From an uncultured Candidatus Saccharibacteria bacterium (GTDB lineage: Bacteria > Patescibacteriota > Andersenbacteria > UBA10190): DNA of 64,000 nt. Position 1 is the first letter of the stretch; each line of letters opens with the position of its first letter. The position numbers and the translations under genes were made by a program. Positions 6,925 through 20,590 of this stretch are shown here, piece by piece. Where the stretch lies: the NCBI GenBank assembly GCA_964359735.1, contig CAYHTZ010000005.1, forward strand, positions 3,882-67,881, read 5' to 3'. The notes beneath the pieces are model-generated. The model was not told where the DNA came from and ran no database searches. It saw only the letters and a program-made list of their open reading frames with translations.

Positions 6925-8349
6925 TTATCCCTTCATTACCCTGGGTCCGGTGCCGGTGTCTTCTACACGATACCCTTTGGCTTCAATGGCGCCCCGCAGT
7001 TCATCCGCCCGGTCAAATTGCTTGTTTTGGCGAGCTGTCTCACGCGCTTCCGCAAGCTGCTTGATCTCCTCTGGAATAGTTTCACCCTCAATCTCTGCTT
7101 CAAGTGGGGCTACCACGCCGACGACCTTATCAAGACGACGAAGGGTCGCTAATACCTCCCCAACAAAATCTGGAGAGGTATAAAAAGAATCAGGCATGCT
7201 ATTTGAGACACTAATAAAGTTTAGAAGGGCGGCAAGTGCACTGGGCGTGTTTAAATCATCTGCGATATGTCTGGAGAATAGAAGGATTGTCTTTTCATCA
7301 GCTTGAGCCGTCTTTGCGCTAACTTCTTTAAGTCGACGTAATAGTTGTTTAATGCTGTCTAGATTTTTTTGAGCTTGATGCATTGCCTCCCAGGAAAAAT
7401 CCAGGGGCGTGCGGTAGTGGCCGCCAAACACCAGCAAGCGGAAGGCGAGAGGGGAGAACCCTTTTTCTTTCAGCGAGTCCACTGTGAGCTGCTCGCCAGC
7501 GCGCTTCGCAAGCTTCTGCCCCTGTAATTTTAGGAAGGCATTATGCATCCACAGACGCACGAACGGCTTGCCGGTGGCCCCTTCTGATTGCGCGATTTCG
7601 TTCTCATGGTGGGGGAAACGGTTGTCTTCGCCGCCGGTGTGGATATCGATTTCACTGTCGAGGTACTTCATACTCATCGCAGAACACTCGATATGCCAGC
7701 CGGGGTAGCCCTTGCCCCAGGGTGAATCCCATTGCTGCAGGTGAGTGGGGTCATTCAGCTTCCACAAGGCGAAGTCGGCCGGATGCCTTTTTTCTTCCCG
7801 CACCTCTACCCGAGCCCCCGCGGCGATTTTTTCTAACGTATTACCCGAAAGTTTTCCGTACTCCGGAAAAGACTTCACGTCAAAATAGATTCCGCTCGGT
7901 GTCTGATACGCATGGCCGCGCGCCAGCAGCGCCTTCGTTATCTCAATCATCTCCGGAATATGCTGTGTCGCGCGCGGGTAGAGGTGGGCAGGTTGAATGT
8001 TAAGCGCGGATAAATCTTGAAAGTATTCTTGCGTAACCTGCTCAGCAATTTGCGCGGGCGTGCGTTTTTGTTCCTTCGCTGTTTTCTCTAACTTATCCTC
8101 GCCGGCATCAATATCATCCTGAGTGAGGTGGCCTACGTCTGTAATATTCGTAATGTCGCGCACCTCGTAACCGAAATATTCGAGAGATCGCCGCAGAAAA
8201 TCGGCAAATAAGAACCGGCGCATATTTCCGAGATGGGGGCGTTTGTACACCGTGGGTCCGCAATTATACATACGCACTTTACCACGCTCTTTCGATTGGA
8301 ATGGCTCAACCCTTTTGGTGAGAGAGTTGTAGAAACGTAGTTCAGTCAT
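6925..8349 (-). CDS. cysS: cysteinyl-tRNA synthetase
   Basis: MYNCGPTVY..HLGN (HIGH-class motif) and a KMSKS-like KLSGN; ~474 aa, typical for CysRS. Confidence 0.85.
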   Translation of the reverse strand: MTELRFYNSLTKRVEPFQSKERGKVRMYNCGPTVYKRPHLGNMRRFLFADFLRRSLEYFGYEVRDITNITDVGHLTQDDIDAGEDKLEKTAKEQKRTPAQIAEQVTQEYFQDLSALNIQPAHLYPRATQHIPEMIEITKALLARGHAYQTPSGIYFDVKSFPEYGKLSGNTLEKIAAGARVEVREEKRHPADFALWKLNDPTHLQQWDSPWGKGYPGWHIECSAMSMKYLDSEIDIHTGGEDNRFPHHENEIAQSEGATGKPFVRLWMHNAFLKLQGQKLAKRAGEQLTVDSLKEKGFSPLAFRLLVFGGHYRTPLDFSWEAMHQAQKNLDSIKQLLRRLKEVSAKTAQADEKTILLFSRHIADDLNTPSALAALLNFISVSNSMPDSFYTSPDFVGEVLATLRRLDKVVGVVAPLEAEIEGETIPEEIKQLAEARETARQNKQFDRADELRGAIEAKGYRVEDTGTGPRVMKG

Positions 8350-8470
8350 GAGTGCAGCGTAAATGACCCCTCCCCGGCACTCAAGTGCCGGACCTCCCCT
8401 TCGTAAGGGGCGGCAAATTTGCTCCCCCTGCCGGAGGGGGAGTCGCCGTCTGCGGCGGAAGGGGTGGGAG

Positions 8471-9379
8471 TCAGAATATGCGTTTCCCTCGAAAGCGCCA
8501 CAACGTGGCCACCAGCATCCCCACGGCTGCTATGAAAAGCACCCAAAACACGATCACATCAACTCGGGAGGCATGTACTGCCCGCGGAGAGAAGAAGGGA
8601 TCGACTAAAATCATGATAGGAATGGTCAAGATTGAATATAGGGTAAGCACCCGGAGCAGCTGATTTTCTTTATGCTGGAGCAGCGCATAGTTTGTTTTAC
8701 CTAACTGCTTCACCGCCTCCGCCAGACTCTCCAGAATATCCCACAGCTTCGCCATCTGGGCTGCCTGCCGCCGCCACGCCTCTCGCGAGTCTTCCTGGAC
8801 TAAGGCATGTGTCGGCGCCTCATAAAAAAGCCGCCGCTGAGGCCGGATCACGCGCCGGAAGTCCATCACATCCCGAGTGAGCAGGGCAACTTCCTCTACC
8901 ATTTTTCGCTCATTCCCGTGGAAGACAGCGTCCTCGGCAATTTCAATATGCTTATTGAGTTTTTCCAGCTTATCAAAGGCAGTGGAGAGCAGCCGGCGGA
9001 TGAGGTAGAGCGCCAAGGGGAGAGCCGTTGCACCAAAGTACTCTTCTCGCTGTTCGGCTTGCTTTTCCAGCTCTTCGTAAAGAGAATCCAACACGACCAG
9101 TGGCTCAAAGTGGAGCGTAGAAACAATACCTTCCCGCACCACCAGGTATAGGTTAACTCCCCGCGTCACGCGCTCTACCCGCTGAAACACAGGCACCTGA
9201 ATGAGGATCAGAACATAGCCCGCCCGGGCCACGACTTCTGGCCGCTGCCGTTCTTGCGCAATGAATTCAGCATCCAGCGGCGAAAGGTTGCTTTCTCGCA
9301 CGAACTCAGCCAGCTCCTCGGGAGAAGGCTCGGCTAAAACATGCCACGTTAGCTCTTTTGAGGTAAGCACCCTCCTCAT
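8471..9379 (-). CDS. CorA-like divalent cation transporter family protein (atypical; GMN signature absent)
   Basis: Cytoplasmic N-domain resembling CorA (acidic funnel region) plus two C-terminal TM helices. The loop between the helices reads LVDPFF where canonical CorA has YGMNF. Confidence 0.5.
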   Translation of the reverse strand: MRRVLTSKELTWHVLAEPSPEELAEFVRESNLSPLDAEFIAQERQRPEVVARAGYVLILIQVPVFQRVERVTRGVNLYLVVREGIVSTLHFEPLVVLDSLYEELEKQAEQREEYFGATALPLALYLIRRLLSTAFDKLEKLNKHIEIAEDAVFHGNERKMVEEVALLTRDVMDFRRVIRPQRRLFYEAPTHALVQEDSREAWRRQAAQMAKLWDILESLAEAVKQLGKTNYALLQHKENQLLRVLTLYSILTIPIMILVDPFFSPRAVHASRVDVIVFWVLFIAAVGMLVATLWRFRGKRIF

Positions 9380-10632: not shown

Positions 10633-10664
10633 TTACTAGCACTCTCGTCTGAAGAGTGCTAGTA
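10633..10664 (+). promoter_or_regulatory. CIRCE operator (HrcA binding site)
   Basis: ttaCTAGCACTC-tcgtctgaa-GAGTGCTAGta is a 9-bp inverted repeat with 9-nt spacer, near-identical to the CIRCE consensus TTAGCACTC-N9-GAGTGCTAA, 8 nt upstream of the hrcA ATG. Confidence 0.75.
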
Positions 10665-13740: not shown

Positions 13741-14532
13741 ATGACGCCACAGCGGGCGAAGGAAATTGGGATTGTTGTCTCAGTGCTGCTGATCAGCCTG
13801 CTCCTGTTTGCCTTAGTTAGTTTATTTATCGCCCAGGATCGATTTGGATCCACTCCTGTGGTAGCAGTGACTATTGTGTTGGCCGTACTTTGGGTAGGCG
13901 CCGTAGCGGTCGCCTTGGCCGTTCTCCAGCACCCGGGGAGCAGCTCCAGTCTCATCGCGGGCATCGCCGCCATGCTCGCGGTGGCAGGCTTGCTGCAACT
14001 GCCCGCCATCGTGGCGGCTCTCTTGCTGGCTCTCTTCTTAACAGTCGGCCGCCGTACTATGTACCATGAAATCAACAATCGTGTCTTGTACCGCACGCAC
14101 GAGGTATTTAGTCGGGGGCTCCGCTCCATTCTCTTCGGCGTGGGTATTGCGGCGCTTGGCTTGGCTTGGCCGCTGGTGGAGGAGAAGCTTACCGGCACGA
14201 ATGTGCTTCTGCCCACTGAGACAGTCGGAGCCGTAGTCAACCGCGTAGTTCCAGCTTTGCCCCCTCACCTCAAAGCGTTTCTCGACGTCGGCCAGCTCAC
14301 CGGCTTTGTTACCTTGGCTGTCAACCAGATGATTCAGTCGTTAATTTCCTCGTACCGTCTGGCATTCCTCTTGATCGTGCTGCTTATCGCCATCTCTGCC
14401 TACCGGGCGGTACTTCCCCTGATTACCTGGGGCATACTGCCTGTCATTGCCGGTCTTATCTACCTTGCGCGCAAAGCCAATCTCATATATCTTAGTCGTT
14501 CGCAAGCTACTATTGAGCGGCTTCATCTCTAA
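13741..14532 (+). CDS. hypothetical polytopic membrane protein
   Basis: The ORF track starts it at 13585 inside dnaK. The first ATG after the dnaK stop (MTPQRAKEIG) gives a ~263 aa protein with 6 or more TM helices between dnaK and dnaJ. Confidence 0.45.
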   Translation: MTPQRAKEIGIVVSVLLISLLLFALVSLFIAQDRFGSTPVVAVTIVLAVLWVGAVAVALAVLQHPGSSSSLIAGIAAMLAVAGLLQLPAIVAALLLALFLTVGRRTMYHEINNRVLYRTHEVFSRGLRSILFGVGIAALGLAWPLVEEKLTGTNVLLPTETVGAVVNRVVPALPPHLKAFLDVGQLTGFVTLAVNQMIQSLISSYRLAFLLIVLLIAISAYRAVLPLITWGILPVIAGLIYLARKANLIYLSRSQATIERLHL

Positions 14533-15662: not shown

Positions 15663-16367
15663 CTATTTGCCCGTATAATTATCCTGAAGCGTAGCGATTT
15701 CCCACTTCCCGTGATCGGTGACCGTACCCGTAATTCTTACTTTTTGGTCGCCCACGAGCACTTCATCTGCGTTACGCTCCACACCACCGCTGGTAAACTT
15801 GGTATTGCCGCCATAATTCATAATCACGTCCTTACCGTTATAGGTTCCTGGGCGGTACGTACTAGTGGTTACAGAGACCTTGTATTCCCTTAATCCTCGA
15901 TCTACATCTTTGAGCTTACCCACTACAGTGAAGGATCGGTCGTGAATGCGCAGCCATTTCACTACGTACGCTGTTTCCGTGGCCACACCTTTAATGGCTA
16001 CCTCAAGCCCAACGGAAATATTTTTGATAGTCACTCGCTTATCTTTACCAGCTGTATTCTTGTAGAATTTCGTAGCCGCTTCCGTTTTGAACGTCTGGAC
16101 TGATCCCCGGAGATCGTCTACGCCAGCCCCGGTAATGTGCGTGACGCTAATGTTGAAGGATTTATCGTCATTAACCCGGGTTACAATACCCCGCGCTACA
16201 AAGTTATACCGCGTGTCCGCCGCTGAGCTGAATCCGGCGTAGAGGGCCACCGCGGCGATGATGATAACGCCGGCAATGGCTACCCACGCATGGTGGTGCT
16301 CCACCGGCTCATGCCATCCTTCACGCTTTTTCGTTTTCTTGGCCATACTAGTTGCCTGTGTATCCAT
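15663..16367 (-). CDS. membrane-anchored secreted protein of unknown function (paralog 1 of tandem pair)
   Basis: N-terminal TM. ~30% identity to the upstream neighbour across the whole length (e.g. VSVTTSTYRPGTYNGK vs ILVTSSTYKPTTYKKG; C-terminal WEIATLQDNYTGK vs WEVASLIDGYTGN). Confidence 0.5.
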   Translation of the reverse strand: MDTQATSMAKKTKKREGWHEPVEHHHAWVAIAGVIIIAAVALYAGFSSAADTRYNFVARGIVTRVNDDKSFNISVTHITGAGVDDLRGSVQTFKTEAATKFYKNTAGKDKRVTIKNISVGLEVAIKGVATETAYVVKWLRIHDRSFTVVGKLKDVDRGLREYKVSVTTSTYRPGTYNGKDVIMNYGGNTKFTSGGVERNADEVLVGDQKVRITGTVTDHGKWEIATLQDNYTGK

Positions 16368-17010
16368 CGATCAAGCTGGCGACCTCCCAGGTATTGCTGC
16401 TGGTAAAGGTGCCGGTCACTTGCACTTTCTGGTTATTGGCCTTGACCACGCTAAAGCTCACGGGTGTCTTGGTGGATTTACTGTAGAACGTGGAATTGCT
16501 CTCAAAGTACTTCATCACGATCAAGGTTCCCTTCTTGTAGGTAGTAGGTTTGTACGTGGAAGACGTGACGAGGATCGTCAGTTCCCGGTTTGTCTCATCG
16601 TGCTTTTGCAGCAAGCCCACCACCTTAAACCCGCGGTCGTGGATGCGCACAAAGGAAAGTTCATAGGTATCGTTATCCTTAGCAGTTCCCTTAATACCAA
16701 GTTCTTGGCCGATTTGAATGTTCTTATAGGTAGCGGCTTTATCCAAGCCGTTAAAAACCTTTACCACCTTAGCGGTACCGGCCTTGAATTCAACGTTCCG
16801 CCCTTCAATATCGTCTTTCGCCTTCGTGGGAACCGCCTTGGTGACGTCAGCTTTAAAGGATTTATTGGCTTGATCAACTCCCGTGACGATCACCCGCGCC
16901 GTAAATGTGTATTTGGCCCCGGCAGCTCTCGATCCAGTTCCCCAAACTGCCACCGCAAAAACAGCTGCTACTGTGAGCGCCCCTAACCCCCAAACAGCCT
17001 CTTTTTTCAT
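16348..17010 (-). CDS. secreted protein of unknown function (paralog 2 of tandem pair)
   Basis: Signal peptide MKKEAVWGLGALTVAAVFAVAVWG; collinear similarity to 15663-16367; 20-nt overlap between the two genes. Confidence 0.5.
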   Translation of the reverse strand: MKKEAVWGLGALTVAAVFAVAVWGTGSRAAGAKYTFTARVIVTGVDQANKSFKADVTKAVPTKAKDDIEGRNVEFKAGTAKVVKVFNGLDKAATYKNIQIGQELGIKGTAKDNDTYELSFVRIHDRGFKVVGLLQKHDETNRELTILVTSSTYKPTTYKKGTLIVMKYFESNSTFYSKSTKTPVSFSVVKANNQKVQVTGTFTSSNTWEVASLIDGYTGN

Positions 17011-17172
17011 GTTGGTTTAATGAAGGATTATTAGGCCTATTATAGCACAGAATTTAAAGGAAGCCCAGCCTTCGCCAAGGCTACGGCGGGCACAGGCCGT
17101 AAGTAGTGCCTGCAGGCCATAGCTTTAGCGACGGCCTGTGGAAAAGTGGTTACACTGAGCGAAGTCAAAGTG

Positions 17173-17245
17173 TGCGTCCGGAGGGAATCGAACCCCCGAC
17201 CGTTGGCTTAAAAGGCCACTGCTCTACCAATTGAGCTACGGACGC
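17173..17245 (-). tRNA. tRNA-Lys (anticodon TTT)
   Basis: Reverse complement GCGTCCGTAGCTCAATTGGTAGAGCAGTGGCCTTTTAAGCCAACGGTCGGGGGTTCGATTCCCTCCGGACGCA. 7-bp acceptor stem, GTTCGATTCC T-arm, anticodon loop CTTTTAA. Confidence 0.85.
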
Positions 17246-17759: not shown

Positions 17760-19172
17760 ATGTCGGCCATTTCTCAAAATCAATATCGCACACACGGTTG
17801 TTGTGAACTGCGGCCAATACATGCCGGGCAAGAAGTCACGCTGTCAGGCTGGGTAGACGTCCGCCGTGATCACGGCAAAATTGTATTTATCGATTTGCGT
17901 GATGAGAGCGGTATAGCCCAGCTCGTAATAACGCCGCCGCTGGCAACTGCCGAAGCCGCGCAACTCCGGTCAGAGTGGGTAATCAAAGTGTCAGGAAAAG
18001 TACAAGTTCGTCCGAAAGCTCAAGTGAATGCGAACATCGCAAGTGGAGAAATTGAGGTAGCAGTGGCCTCGCTTGAGATTATTAATGAGGCTGCCACGCC
18101 GCCGTTTGCCATTAACACTGACGGCCATGATATTAGCGAAGAGGTGCGACTCAAGTATCGCTACCTTGATCTGCGACGGCCGCGTCTGCAGCGTAATCTC
18201 CGCTTGCGCTCGAAGTTTGTAGAAGCCGCACGTCAATATTTATTTAGTCAGGGCTTTAACGAAGTTGAGACACCCTACTTTACCAGTACTACGCCAGAAG
18301 GATCGCGTGATTTTGTGGTACCCTCACGTCTCTATCCAGGTAAGTTCTTTGCCCTGCCACAGAGCCCGCAGCAGTATAAAGAGCTCCTGATGGTAGCTGG
18401 CTTCGAAAAGTACTTTCAAATCGCTCGCGCCTTCCGGGACGAAGACTTGAGAGCAGATCGCGGCTTTGAGCACACCCAAATTGACATGGAGATGAGCTTC
18501 GTAACGCGGGAAGATATTATGGCGCTTGACGAGGCAATGATCACATCAGCCGTGGAGGCTGTGGGCTTGACAGTGAAGGAGAAACCATTTCCACGATACA
18601 CCTACGCCGAGGCTATGAAGCAATTTGGCGCCGATAAGTTTGATCTCCGCACGGAAGAAGACAAAAAAGCCGGCCATCTGGCCTTTGCCTGGGTCACTGA
18701 TTTCCCATTTTTTGAGAAAACCGATGAAGAAGGTTGGACCTTTACGCATAACCCTTTCTCGGCGCCTCTGCCGGAACATCTCGAGTGGCACCTCAAAGGG
18801 GAAAACGTGGAGAAGATTATTGCGCAGCAATACGACTTGGTGTGTAATGGCGTTGAAGTAGGGGGTGGCAGCGTCCGCGCTCACAGGCCCGATATTTTGA
18901 AAGCAACATTTCGCATTATGGGGTACGACGAAGAGCGGATTGAACGTGACTTTGGCCATATGCTGAAAGCCTTGGGATCTGGCGCACCTCCGCACGGCGG
19001 CATTGCACATGGCGTGGAGCGCTTACTTATGACCCTCACCGGTGAGCAATACTTGCGCGAAGTCGTAGCCTTTCCGCAAACTTCCACCGGCCGCACTTCT
19101 GTCATGGATGCCCCCAGCCCCCTCACACCCGAACAACTCAAAGAACTCCACCTCAAATTGGATCTGAAATGA
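17760..19172 (+). CDS. aspS: aspartyl-tRNA synthetase, bacterial-type catalytic core but lacking the GAD insertion domain
   Basis: N-terminal OB-fold anticodon-binding domain; class II motif 2 FRDEDLRADRGFEHTQID; motif 3 region GGIAHGVERL. At 470 aa versus ~590, the sequence runs directly from ...DKFDLR into the WVTDFPFF segment with no room for a GAD domain. Confidence 0.8.
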   Translation: MSAISQNQYRTHGCCELRPIHAGQEVTLSGWVDVRRDHGKIVFIDLRDESGIAQLVITPPLATAEAAQLRSEWVIKVSGKVQVRPKAQVNANIASGEIEVAVASLEIINEAATPPFAINTDGHDISEEVRLKYRYLDLRRPRLQRNLRLRSKFVEAARQYLFSQGFNEVETPYFTSTTPEGSRDFVVPSRLYPGKFFALPQSPQQYKELLMVAGFEKYFQIARAFRDEDLRADRGFEHTQIDMEMSFVTREDIMALDEAMITSAVEAVGLTVKEKPFPRYTYAEAMKQFGADKFDLRTEEDKKAGHLAFAWVTDFPFFEKTDEEGWTFTHNPFSAPLPEHLEWHLKGENVEKIIAQQYDLVCNGVEVGGGSVRAHRPDILKATFRIMGYDEERIERDFGHMLKALGSGAPPHGGIAHGVERLLMTLTGEQYLREVVAFPQTSTGRTSVMDAPSPLTPEQLKELHLKLDLK

Positions 19173-20590
19173 CCTGGAAGAAAGTCTGGTCCAAACGGTT
19201 TTCGATTCGCTTAGCCGAGAACTGGCTCTATTCGGTTGAGCAATTTCCTCAGATATTCGGGGTGAAATTTCCCGACCAACTGATTGTTATCAAGGACGAG
19301 ATGGGGACGGGGTACCATGATGCCGAACAGCTTGAGAAGTGTCTCCAGGGCATTCTTAGAAAGATTTACGCATCCTCATTTGAGACTGTATACGAAACCA
19401 AAGCTTTACCAGTGCTGGAAAGTTTTCGGAAGTTTTGTCTCGCCATAGGGAAGCGCGATTTGGAAAAGCACTCCGCCGATCAGTTCATTGAGTTATGGCA
19501 AGAATTTATTACCCAAGAGGATGACTGGATGAATTATGTGTGGGCAGTCTTCAGTCTTGATGAAATCCTTTCGCGCGAGCTGAACAAGGAGCTACCTAAG
19601 GCTGTTACCAAAGATAAATTGGAACAGATTCTCTCGGCCATATTTTCCACCGAAAGGAAGACCGCAGCTGCTCAGCAACGCATAGACCTCTTGAACCTGG
19701 CTGCCCGAGCAACTCCTGAAAATCGAGAAGAAGGGCTCGCCCAGCTAACTAATCACTACGCCTACTTTCCTATACTCAACATGGATGAAGATCCCTTATC
19801 TCCCGAATACTTTGCCCGCGAGCTCAAGAAAATACCGCCGGAAGATGCTAAAGCTGAGCTCAAAAAGCTCGCAACCGCAGCCAGGCAGCATCAGAAAGCA
19901 TACAAAGAATTTCTCGCCTCCATTGAAAACAACCAAAAACTTTACCGCCTCGTCGATGCCTGCCACAGGGTGGCCTTTTACCGCGAATACCGTAACGACC
20001 TGCGCCAGGAAAGCTATTACCACGCACGAGCGCTCTATCAGGAAATAGCTCGCCGCCTGCAGCTGAGTATTTCTGGCGTTACCTATCTCACCAGATATGA
20101 AGTGAAAGAGTCGCTAGAGAAAGAAAACCCGGCGATCTCGCCAAGCCTAATCGCAGAGCGGAAAAAGTTTTCGGTTCTTCGTATCGAGGGAGGGCAAGTT
20201 TCGTATCACTTTGACCCGGCCACAGCGGATTTTTTGCCGCATACTGAAGAGTTACAGGGTGGTAAAAATATATTAACCGGAGTAGCGGCTTACCCTGGCA
20301 CAGTCCGTGGCAGAGTGAAGGTAGTACTGAGCGTTAAAAAAGACACAGATAAGTTTGAGCCCGGGGATATTCTTGTAGCCACCACGACTAACCTTAGTTT
20401 CATGCCGCTCATCTCGAAGGCCAGCGCCATTGTGACTGACGAAGGTGGTATGCTCACTCACACAGCCATTGTGGCCCGGGAGCTCAAAAAACCCTGCGTT
20501 GTCGGTACTGAAGTAGCTACCACGTTCCTCAAAGACGGAGATGAAATAGAAGTTCAAGCTGATAAAGGAATCGTAAGAATACTTGGGTAG
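19169..20590 (+). CDS. protein with C-terminal PEP-utilizing-enzyme mobile (phosphohistidine swivel) domain and uncharacterized alpha-helical N-terminal domain
   Basis: C-terminal ~110 aa (GTVRGRVKVV...GDILVATTTNLSFMPLISKASAIVTDEGGMLTHTAIVARELKKPCVVG) matches the PEP-synthase/PPDK swivel domain, including the conserved His. No ATP-grasp or PEP/pyruvate-binding TIM barrel is present. Confidence 0.6.
   Translation: MTWKKVWSKRFSIRLAENWLYSVEQFPQIFGVKFPDQLIVIKDEMGTGYHDAEQLEKCLQGILRKIYASSFETVYETKALPVLESFRKFCLAIGKRDLEKHSADQFIELWQEFITQEDDWMNYVWAVFSLDEILSRELNKELPKAVTKDKLEQILSAIFSTERKTAAAQQRIDLLNLAARATPENREEGLAQLTNHYAYFPILNMDEDPLSPEYFARELKKIPPEDAKAELKKLATAARQHQKAYKEFLASIENNQKLYRLVDACHRVAFYREYRNDLRQESYYHARALYQEIARRLQLSISGVTYLTRYEVKESLEKENPAISPSLIAERKKFSVLRIEGGQVSYHFDPATADFLPHTEELQGGKNILTGVAAYPGTVRGRVKVVLSVKKDTDKFEPGDILVATTTNLSFMPLISKASAIVTDEGGMLTHTAIVARELKKPCVVGTEVATTFLKDGDEIEVQADKGIVRILG

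Follow-up and report, generated by a model that had tools for sequence, protein, structure and literature searches.

Two adjacent genes, here called A and B, lie on the minus strand of the window, the 64-kb stretch of DNA that we analyzed. Gene A (16348..17010, minus strand) is an ORF encoding a probably exported protein of 220 aa with a predicted signal peptide and two OB/DUF5666-like modules, and it belongs to the A-type ortholog group. Gene B (15663..16346, minus strand), whose start we took from its orthologs, encodes a protein of 227 aa counted from Met8 and belongs to the B-type ortholog group. A preliminary description of this DNA had reported two neighboring minus-strand ORFs here, and both are present along with the peptides and C-termini that it quoted. 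The two proteins align over 194 collinear residues at 42% identity (BLASTP, E=5e-35), far beyond chance, and by this similarity genes A and B are paralogous, as had been proposed. Both are rich in Thr, Lys, and Val, in keeping with the first description (T 11.8, K 11.4, and V 11.4% in A; V 11.9, T 10.6, and K 9.3% in B).

Public gene calls label both products 'hypothetical protein' and use a longer form of B. Protein A is identical to NCBI MEK7556970.1, 'hypothetical protein AAB538_03260 [Patescibacteria group bacterium]', a MAG record. Other genes in the window are hrcA-grpE-dnaK-dnaJ, AspRS, a PEP-utiliser, and a Ctp protease, a content that fits a small CPR genome; this and the Patescibacteria origin of the protein A record agree with the 'minimal genome' first suggested. 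A family HMM identifies exactly two family copies within the window. A plus-strand ORF antisense to A (16258..16986, 242 aa) was discarded as a shadow ORF without support.

The A/B junction and the upstream region

The stop codon of A and the start codon of B form the sequence TAG-t-ATG (16344..16350, minus strand), in which the Met8 ATG of B (16346-16344) lies one base past the TAG of A (16350-16348), an arrangement that likely couples their translation. In the family alignment and in a comparison of B-type N-termini, the B orthologs begin where Met8 lies; a length of 227 aa is therefore more likely for B, and the two genes more likely abut than overlap by 20 nt. The adjacency given in the preliminary description therefore holds, while the slight overlap it reported arises only if the first ATG of B (16367) is used, giving an ORF of 15663..16367 and 234 aa. 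Among the relatives, the A/B spacer is 1 nt in locus L001, and A and B overlap by 14 nt in L012; 1-nt spacers and short overlaps alike are typical of translationally coupled genes. Judging from this arrangement of codons, A and B are probably co-translated.

The conserved upstream neighbor of the pair is a tRNA-Lys(UUU) gene (17172..17245, minus strand; ARAGORN and Rfam), as first noted, and it sits beside A in 4 of the 4 relatives checked (L001, L002, L005, L012) in varying orientation. Between the tRNA gene and A, inverted repeats form a long imperfect hairpin with a U-rich tract (17066..17141, minus strand; MFE -48.4 kcal/mol, z=-2.2) and a terminator-like site at 17083-17066, which is probably the terminator of the tRNA transcript. 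Downstream of this hairpin, ~30 nt upstream of the A ATG, we read an extended -10-like sequence, TGcTATAAT (17039..17047, minus strand), which could serve as a promoter of an A-B bicistron; a consensus promoter scan that requires a -35 hexamer did not list this site at 17047-17039. A known cis-regulatory RNA upstream of A was ruled out, since Rfam reports the tRNA alone there and assigns the hairpin to no family. Control of A and B by HrcA was also rejected, since the one CIRCE operator of the window, where none is expected by chance, lies upstream of hrcA (10636-10662) and the region before gene A has none.

Predicted export signals and tandem OB modules

Both proteins are probably exported, with an N-terminal helix as the predicted signal or anchor. 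Residues 1-31 of A (16918..17010, minus strand) make up a predicted Sec-type signal peptide or signal anchor that begins MKKE, continues with ~20 hydrophobic residues, and ends at AAG↓A; AlphaFold2 places a helix over residues 9-23 with low pLDDT over residues 1-28. By eye, most A-type orthologs have MKK-hydrophobic-AxA N-termini (e.g., AQA↓ASNV and AHA↓ATNV), and the AAG↓A of the window's A is a weaker predicted cleavage site. The B-type N-termini of the window's subclade are longer and basic, with the tail KKTKKR in the window's B. The hydrophobic helix of B (residues 20-38; 16233..16289, minus strand), also modeled as a helix by AlphaFold2, is a probable signal anchor with a predicted N-in/C-out topology, and we infer its N-in orientation from the positive-inside rule. 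N-terminal comparison reveals a motif directly before this helix, W-x-x-x-V-[ED]-H-H-H-A-W, which reads W-H-E-P-V-E-H-H-H-A-W in the window (residues 11-21 from Met8; 16284..16316, minus strand). It is conserved in the window's B-type subclade and, among all fetched loci, occurs in family members only. This conservation suggests that the segment before the membrane helix is retained or specifically recognized, which fits an N-in signal anchor. Neither protein has a lipobox or any Cys, and neither carries an LPXTG-like sortase motif; the C-termini, ...LIDGYTGN and ...LQDNYTGK, follow directly after the last strand.

Structure prediction with AlphaFold2 gave confident two-OB-barrel models for both proteins (mean pLDDT of 85.8 for A and 83.6 for B, and >90 in both barrels of each). 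Each model has one N-terminal helix followed by two beta-barrels that form an all-beta body, in line with the all-beta fold and N-terminal signal or anchor that had been proposed. In A, the predicted N-terminal module spans residues 32-124 (16639..16917, minus strand; strands over 32-124, pLDDT >90) and is homologous to the C-terminal module at residues 127-220 (16351..16632, minus strand; strands over 127-215). The modules of B span residues 45-135 (15942..16214, minus strand; AlphaFold2 and an internal repeat found by hhalign) and residues 138-227 (15666..15935, minus strand; AlphaFold2). In a profile-profile comparison (hhalign), the N-half of the family matches the C-half with a probability of 97.3% and E=1.7e-11 over 85 columns, and A and B are therefore each an internal tandem of one ~90-aa module. 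The repeat is visible by profile-profile comparison only; BLASTP found no match between the two halves of A.

A Foldseek search against the PDB identified CusF/SilF as the best single-module match to A and B (probability 1.00, TM 0.72-0.81 on target, rmsd ~2.7-3 Å, 10-15% identity, best E=4e-4). The C-terminal module of B has its best matches to CusF, with E=4e-4 and TM 0.75-0.81 on target. Further matches were to RPA, cold-shock domains, IF1, and the two-OB Deinococcus SSB. The best two-module match was the double OB of Mpa/ARC. The Mpa/ARC/PAN inter-domain shares two consecutive OB barrels in one chain with our proteins; however, it is cytoplasmic and part of AAA+ unfoldases, the superposition has an rmsd of 9-10 Å at 5-8% identity, and topology alone is common. 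As modeled, the A and B modules are OB folds, five-stranded closed barrels, without a specific solved relative.

Searches of Pfam, NCBIfam, and PDB sequences with A and B returned nothing significant, and Pfam listed no DUF5666 for A and B themselves even at E<=10. The full-length family consensus, in contrast to the preliminary description's view that no family could be assigned, matches DUF5666 (PF18914) at 31.7 bits and E=1.9e-7 (gathering score 27). The match lies in the C-module of the consensus and covers model positions 9-58 of 60; the C-module consensus alone gives E=1.3e-5, and the N-module consensus is weak (E=0.026). When 41 members were scanned singly against Pfam, 8 matched DUF5666 (best E=1.8e-6), and matches to the OB families CusF_Ec, CcmE, and DUF5818 also appeared. 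Two distant members, P0079 and P0094, carry precomputed PF18914 annotations and score 25.5-26.2 bits on rescan. Because 70 residues of the consensus match 50 model positions of DUF5666, the modules carry an insertion, which is a short helix in the N-module and the loop S-x-Y-K-P-x-x-Y in the C-module. At the profile level, then, the A/B family is made up of tandem, insertion-bearing, very divergent DUF5666-type OB barrels. A search with the family alignment against PDB profiles returned a titin match alone, which is spurious.

DUF5666 domains are widespread in bacteria, and like A and B they are secreted beta-barrels of unknown function. The A/B modules differ from them in length (~90 aa vs. 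a 60-position model), in a loop or helix inserted between strands 2 and 3, in their fixed architecture of a signal and two modules, and in their restriction to Patescibacteria. The preliminary description had held that confident homology to a well-characterized family would make the pair routine; no such homology emerged, as DUF5666 is itself uncharacterized. Literature searches on DUF5666 returned incidental mentions in omics tables only, with no established function, and those for surface or OB-fold proteins of Patescibacteria gave no relevant paper. A and B are thus a divergent, lineage-specific variant of a domain family already catalogued but uncharacterized, and the observation is real and non-trivial.

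The family is small and has so far been found in Patescibacteria only. It forms 49 clusters among 5.8e9 proteins and has 45 representatives at E<=1e-3 among 1.84e9 proteins, a number that includes false positives, at least 2 of which are long PKD/LRR repeat proteins (P0084 and P0086). The genuine members are all 200-257 aa long and have no variable repeats. Among 185,579 species-representative genomes we found 7 family loci, all in Patescibacteria MAGs labelled Andersenbacteria or 'Saccharibacteria'. A defense or phage origin of A and B was rejected, as PADLOC gave 0 matches and the only PHROGs match, at E=0.033, was to an uncharacterized family.

Synteny, age, and constraint of the pair

Copy number varies among relatives: the pair occurs in 8 independent loci, and other loci have a single copy. 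In the 8 pair-bearing loci (the window, L001, L002 (= L003/L004), L005, L012, L019, L020, and L021), A is followed by B, and B lies tail-to-tail with dnaJ. This dnaJ ends an hrcA-grpE-dnaK-X-dnaJ operon in which X, an uncharacterized membrane protein, co-occurs with the A/B duplication. Each pair locus encodes one A-type and one B-type ectodomain, and an NJ tree resolves the two types as sister clades. Identity of DnaK among the pair-bearing genomes is as low as 75-87%. Given separate A and B orthologs in 8 loci and the sister clades, the duplication predates these genomes; it is ancient, and the pair has been long retained.

The single-copy relatives (L007, L008, L009/L013/L014, L015, L016, L017/L018, and L022) nest on the A side of the NJ tree or outside the pair. 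The L017/L018 member is very distant (~26% identical, with DnaK at 71%) and also lies tail-to-tail with dnaJ, so this position looks ancestral. The remaining single-copy neighborhoods are unrelated and contain SWIB, BacA with a glycosyltransferase, a P1B-like ATPase, or VTT with CopC.

Synonymous substitutions are saturated between A and B and in nearly all ortholog comparisons, including that with the closest relative with DNA, which makes the paralog dN/dS uninformative. We therefore used dN relative to neighboring housekeeping genes in place of dN/dS. Compared with the nearest relative, L012, dN is 0.11 for A and 0.10 for DnaK; for B it is 0.24, beside 0.26 for DnaJ and 0.24 for Ctp. The dN of B is about twice that of A. 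By this measure A and B are under ordinary purifying constraint, with no sign of diversifying selection. The earlier proposal that a diverged duplicate suggests selection, for example on an adhesin, does not hold up against an ancient duplication with dN values like those of DnaK and DnaJ.

Ectodomain chemistry and candidate functions

The mature domains of A and B are strongly basic, with pI values of 9.56 and 9.59; across the family (n=84) the median is 9.39, and 94% of members exceed 8.5. Proteins encoded in the window have a median pI of ~6.6, with 17% above 9, so the basic charge is a family trait and not a genome bias. Cys is absent from 79 of the 84 members, and none of the His, Met, or Cys columns reaches 85% conservation across the family, the best being H 42%, H 42%, and M 60% (n=84). 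Apart from Gly, conservation is highest in columns F, R, E, F, S, Y, and Q, among them the S-x-Y loop of the C-module; the S and Y columns of S-x-Y-K-P-x-x-Y are 88-89% conserved. One His, H124, never varies within the A subfamily, and H137 and M166 hardly do.

From this anatomy we infer a mechanism with B as the anchor of a heteromer and an anionic ligand. We give a probability of about 0.45 to a co-translated, envelope-tethered A-B heteromer of OB modules that binds an anionic, non-metal ligand. One transcript with abutting stop and start codons would allow A and B to be made together, and the Sec pathway would export both. A would carry a conventional signal peptide in this genome, and B would keep its basic cytoplasmic tail with EHHHAW and its transmembrane helix, leaving it tethered on the outer face of the cytoplasmic membrane. 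Association of A with the tethered B would then bring four strongly basic OB barrels (pI ~9.5) together as a heteromeric array at the envelope. Its ligand would most plausibly be an envelope glycopolymer or a lipid-linked precursor, or alternatively extracellular nucleic acid, bound through the Tyr/Lys-rich S-x-Y-K-P-x-x-Y loop and neighboring basic residues. After the duplication, the copies would have specialized rather than diversified, with A evolving more slowly and B evolving faster with a modified N-terminus. A lipid-binding module of the kind suggested in the preliminary description found no counterpart, as neither Pfam nor Foldseek matched A or B to MCE/MlaD, LolA, or Lpt-type folds.

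A receptor- or ligand-binding role of some kind is plausible. A more specific form of it, a Patescibacteria-specific, membrane-tethered heteromeric four-OB receptor made of A and B that uses the EHHHAW His-triad as a hitherto undescribed signal-anchor or sorting motif and captures a host or environmental anionic polymer (nucleic acid or wall glycopolymer) for auxotrophic episymbionts, is a long shot; if true, it would be the first function in the DUF5666 superfamily and a new component of CPR envelope uptake or attachment. In Patescibacteria, which are abundant, have reduced genomes, and are for the most part uncultivated, a large share of the envelope proteins lacks an assigned function. Here two 'hypothetical proteins' become members of a defined family, a distant DUF5666 relative with an exported tandem OB fold, whose apparent history runs from internal duplication through gene duplication to long retention as a coupled pair. 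The heteromer model predicts that A and B form a complex, that their ligand is anionic, and that the His-triad anchor stays uncleaved, all of which can be tested; a ligand, if found, would offer a first route to the function of DUF5666 domains. The pair is a well-characterized unknown rather than a surprise, with no bearing on a long-standing open question.

Among the alternatives to the heteromer model, we consider it unlikely that A and B are extracytoplasmic metal chaperones or buffers of the CusF/SilF type, in which the barrels or the His triad of B would pass Cu, Ag, Zn, or Ni to or from a transporter. CusF and SilF (PF11604) are periplasmic Cu(I)/Ag(I) chaperones that share a small exported OB barrel with our proteins, and they are the best single-domain structural matches; CusF_Ec is also weakly matched in 3 of 41 members by Pfam. 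The conserved HHH motif of B and the near-invariant His and Met residues of the A subfamily could supply ligands. Two single-copy relatives also lie near metal genes: the one in L015 is followed immediately by a P1B-like ATPase that has a TPC motif, and the one in L022 is 3 kb from CopC/cupredoxin genes. However, the Pfam scores for CusF are far below threshold (best E=0.011 for CusF_Ec), and the metal ligands of CusF, His36, Met47, and Met49 (and Trp44), are not kept, in agreement with the absence of any family-wide His, Met, or Cys column. The HHH of B is on the predicted cytoplasmic side; many B-type proteins lack it, as do nearly all of the A type. The family gene of L015 is cut off from the ATPase by a strong hairpin terminator, and no metal genes flank the pair in 8 of 8 pair-bearing loci. 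Unlike CusF and SilF, A and B have two barrels, are strongly basic, and lack a cus/sil operon context. The heme chaperone CcmE (PF03100) also resembles A and B, since its extracytoplasmic OB barrel comes after a membrane anchor at the N-terminus, and 2 of 41 family members match it weakly in Pfam (E=0.017-0.22, below cutoff); however, the His of the R-I-H-D-R linker is present in only 42% of the A/B family, and no ccm genes occur in any family locus examined.

Extracellular nucleic-acid binding for DNA or nucleotide scavenging, a specific form of the anionic-ligand idea, is improbable to much the same degree. The OB matches to RPA, cold-shock domains, IF1, and the two-OB Deinococcus SSB, the uniformly basic ectodomains, and the conserved Tyr/Lys loop are all consistent with it. 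Such structural matches are nonetheless generic to OB barrels and weaker than those to CusF, none of the loci examined has com or pilus genes next to the family genes, and the canonical ssDNA-binding aromatic pattern is not demonstrated.

Still less probable is that the pair serves an episymbiont as an adhesin or host-receptor-binding module whose duplicate diversifying selection has maintained. Patescibacteria are generally known as host-attached bacteria, A and B are predicted to be surface-exposed, B evolves ~2x as fast as A, and the B copy of L005 is very divergent at 31% identity. Yet ortholog rates resemble those of housekeeping genes, with A near DnaK and B near DnaJ; length (200-250 aa) and architecture are fixed without variable repeats; the presence of just two copies in the 64-kb window argues against multigene expansion; and the locus keeps its syntenic place beside a heat-shock operon and is not part of a variable island.

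Least probable is an extracytoplasmic protein-quality-control factor tied to the adjacent HrcA/DnaK/DnaJ operon, for although the tail-to-tail adjacency with dnaJ is kept from the window to the ~26%-identical L017/L018 member and the duplication co-occurs with the membrane protein inserted between dnaK and dnaJ, the convergent orientation excludes co-transcription, CIRCE is found only upstream of hrcA and not before gene A, several single-copy members are not beside dnaJ, and the co-occurrence amounts to a single phylogenetic event.

At one pair-bearing locus, L019, the A-type copy bears the KHHHAAVALL N-terminus of B almost verbatim. Identity between the A and B paralogs is 53% at this locus and 30-43% elsewhere, and the B-like N-terminus together with the raised identity indicates localized gene conversion in L019.

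The heat-shock operon beside the paralogous pair

Gene B, the second of the two adjacent paralogs encoding exported tandem OB-fold proteins, stands tail-to-tail with dnaJ at the end of the HrcA heat-shock operon. We found a CIRCE operator directly upstream of hrcA (window 10636..10662, plus strand; CTAGCACTC-N9-GAGTGCTAG), which is near-perfect, with 2 mismatches; 0 such sites are expected by chance. We also observed that this operon encodes an uncharacterised multi-pass membrane protein of ~263-310 aa placed between dnaK and dnaJ, for which a Pfam search gave no match. It lies at ~13741..14532 on the plus strand of the window and is found in all loci of relatives that carry the A/B pair, including L001 (10541-11296), L002 (10549-11478), L012 (5771-6562), L019 (11168-12052), L020 (2663-3592), and L021 (2573-3364). 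At L017/L018 the membrane protein is absent, dnaJ directly follows dnaK, and the OB gene is single-copy.

N-terminal motif of the B-type proteins and probable exchange between copies

Directly before its transmembrane helix, gene B encodes the motif W-x-x-x-V-[ED]-H-H-H-A-W (window 16284..16316, minus strand). The motif is conserved ahead of the helix in B-type proteins, including those of L012, L019, and others, and a search across all loci examined found it confined to the OB family. This may be a novel motif for signal anchoring, sorting, or metal binding. At L019 the tandem paralogs (7276-7995 and 7995-8684) have a nearly identical N-terminus, KHHHAAVALL..., in both copies; nonetheless, one ectodomain is A-type and the other B-type. 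The two proteins are 53% identical, compared with 30-43% for the paralogs of other loci. The shared N-terminus and the raised identity together indicate that gene conversion has acted locally between the two copies.

Neighbours upstream of gene A

A tRNA-Lys(UUU) gene is conserved next to gene A on its upstream side, although its relative orientation varies. In the window (17172..17245, minus strand) and L012 (3251-3324) the tRNA shares the strand of A; in L001 (7872-7945), L002 (7848-7920), and L005 (2723-2796) it lies on the other strand. Between tRNA-Lys and gene A, the minus strand of the window contains a long imperfect hairpin with a terminal U-rich tract (17066..17141). The intergenic RNA has an MFE of -48.4 kcal/mol (z=-2.2), and the hairpin, which matched no Rfam family, is probably a terminator.

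AspRS differs among close relatives. The window enzyme (17760..19172, plus strand) is short, with 470 aa and no GAD domain, whereas the syntenic L002 enzyme (1183-2979) has 598 aa and contains GAD; the AspRS of L012 is likewise short, at 446 aa, yet just 38% identical to that of the window. These differing forms suggest either replacement or strong divergence. A gene at window 19169..20590 (plus strand) has a 4-nt overlap with the stop codon of AspRS and encodes a 473-aa protein whose sole assigned domain is a C-terminal PEP-utiliser mobile domain at residues 396-467, with the N-terminal ~390 aa lacking an assignment.

Single-copy, split, and shadow reading frames

Near two single-copy family members there are metal-homeostasis genes (L015, 7514-9361; L022, 3565-4778). 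At L015 the nearby gene encodes a P1B-like ATPase of 615 aa that carries a TPC motif, and a strong hairpin terminator separates it from the family gene; at L022, CopC and CopC-cupredoxin genes are located 3 kb downstream of the family member. In the L011 MAG the family gene is present as two overlapping ORFs (7926-8363 and 8246-8776), a split caused by a frameshift, pseudogene formation, or assembly error. In the window, a 242-aa ORF antisense to gene A (16258..16986, plus strand) was rejected as a real gene: it is a shadow ORF without homology support, which a naive longest-ORF picker favours over the real gene A.
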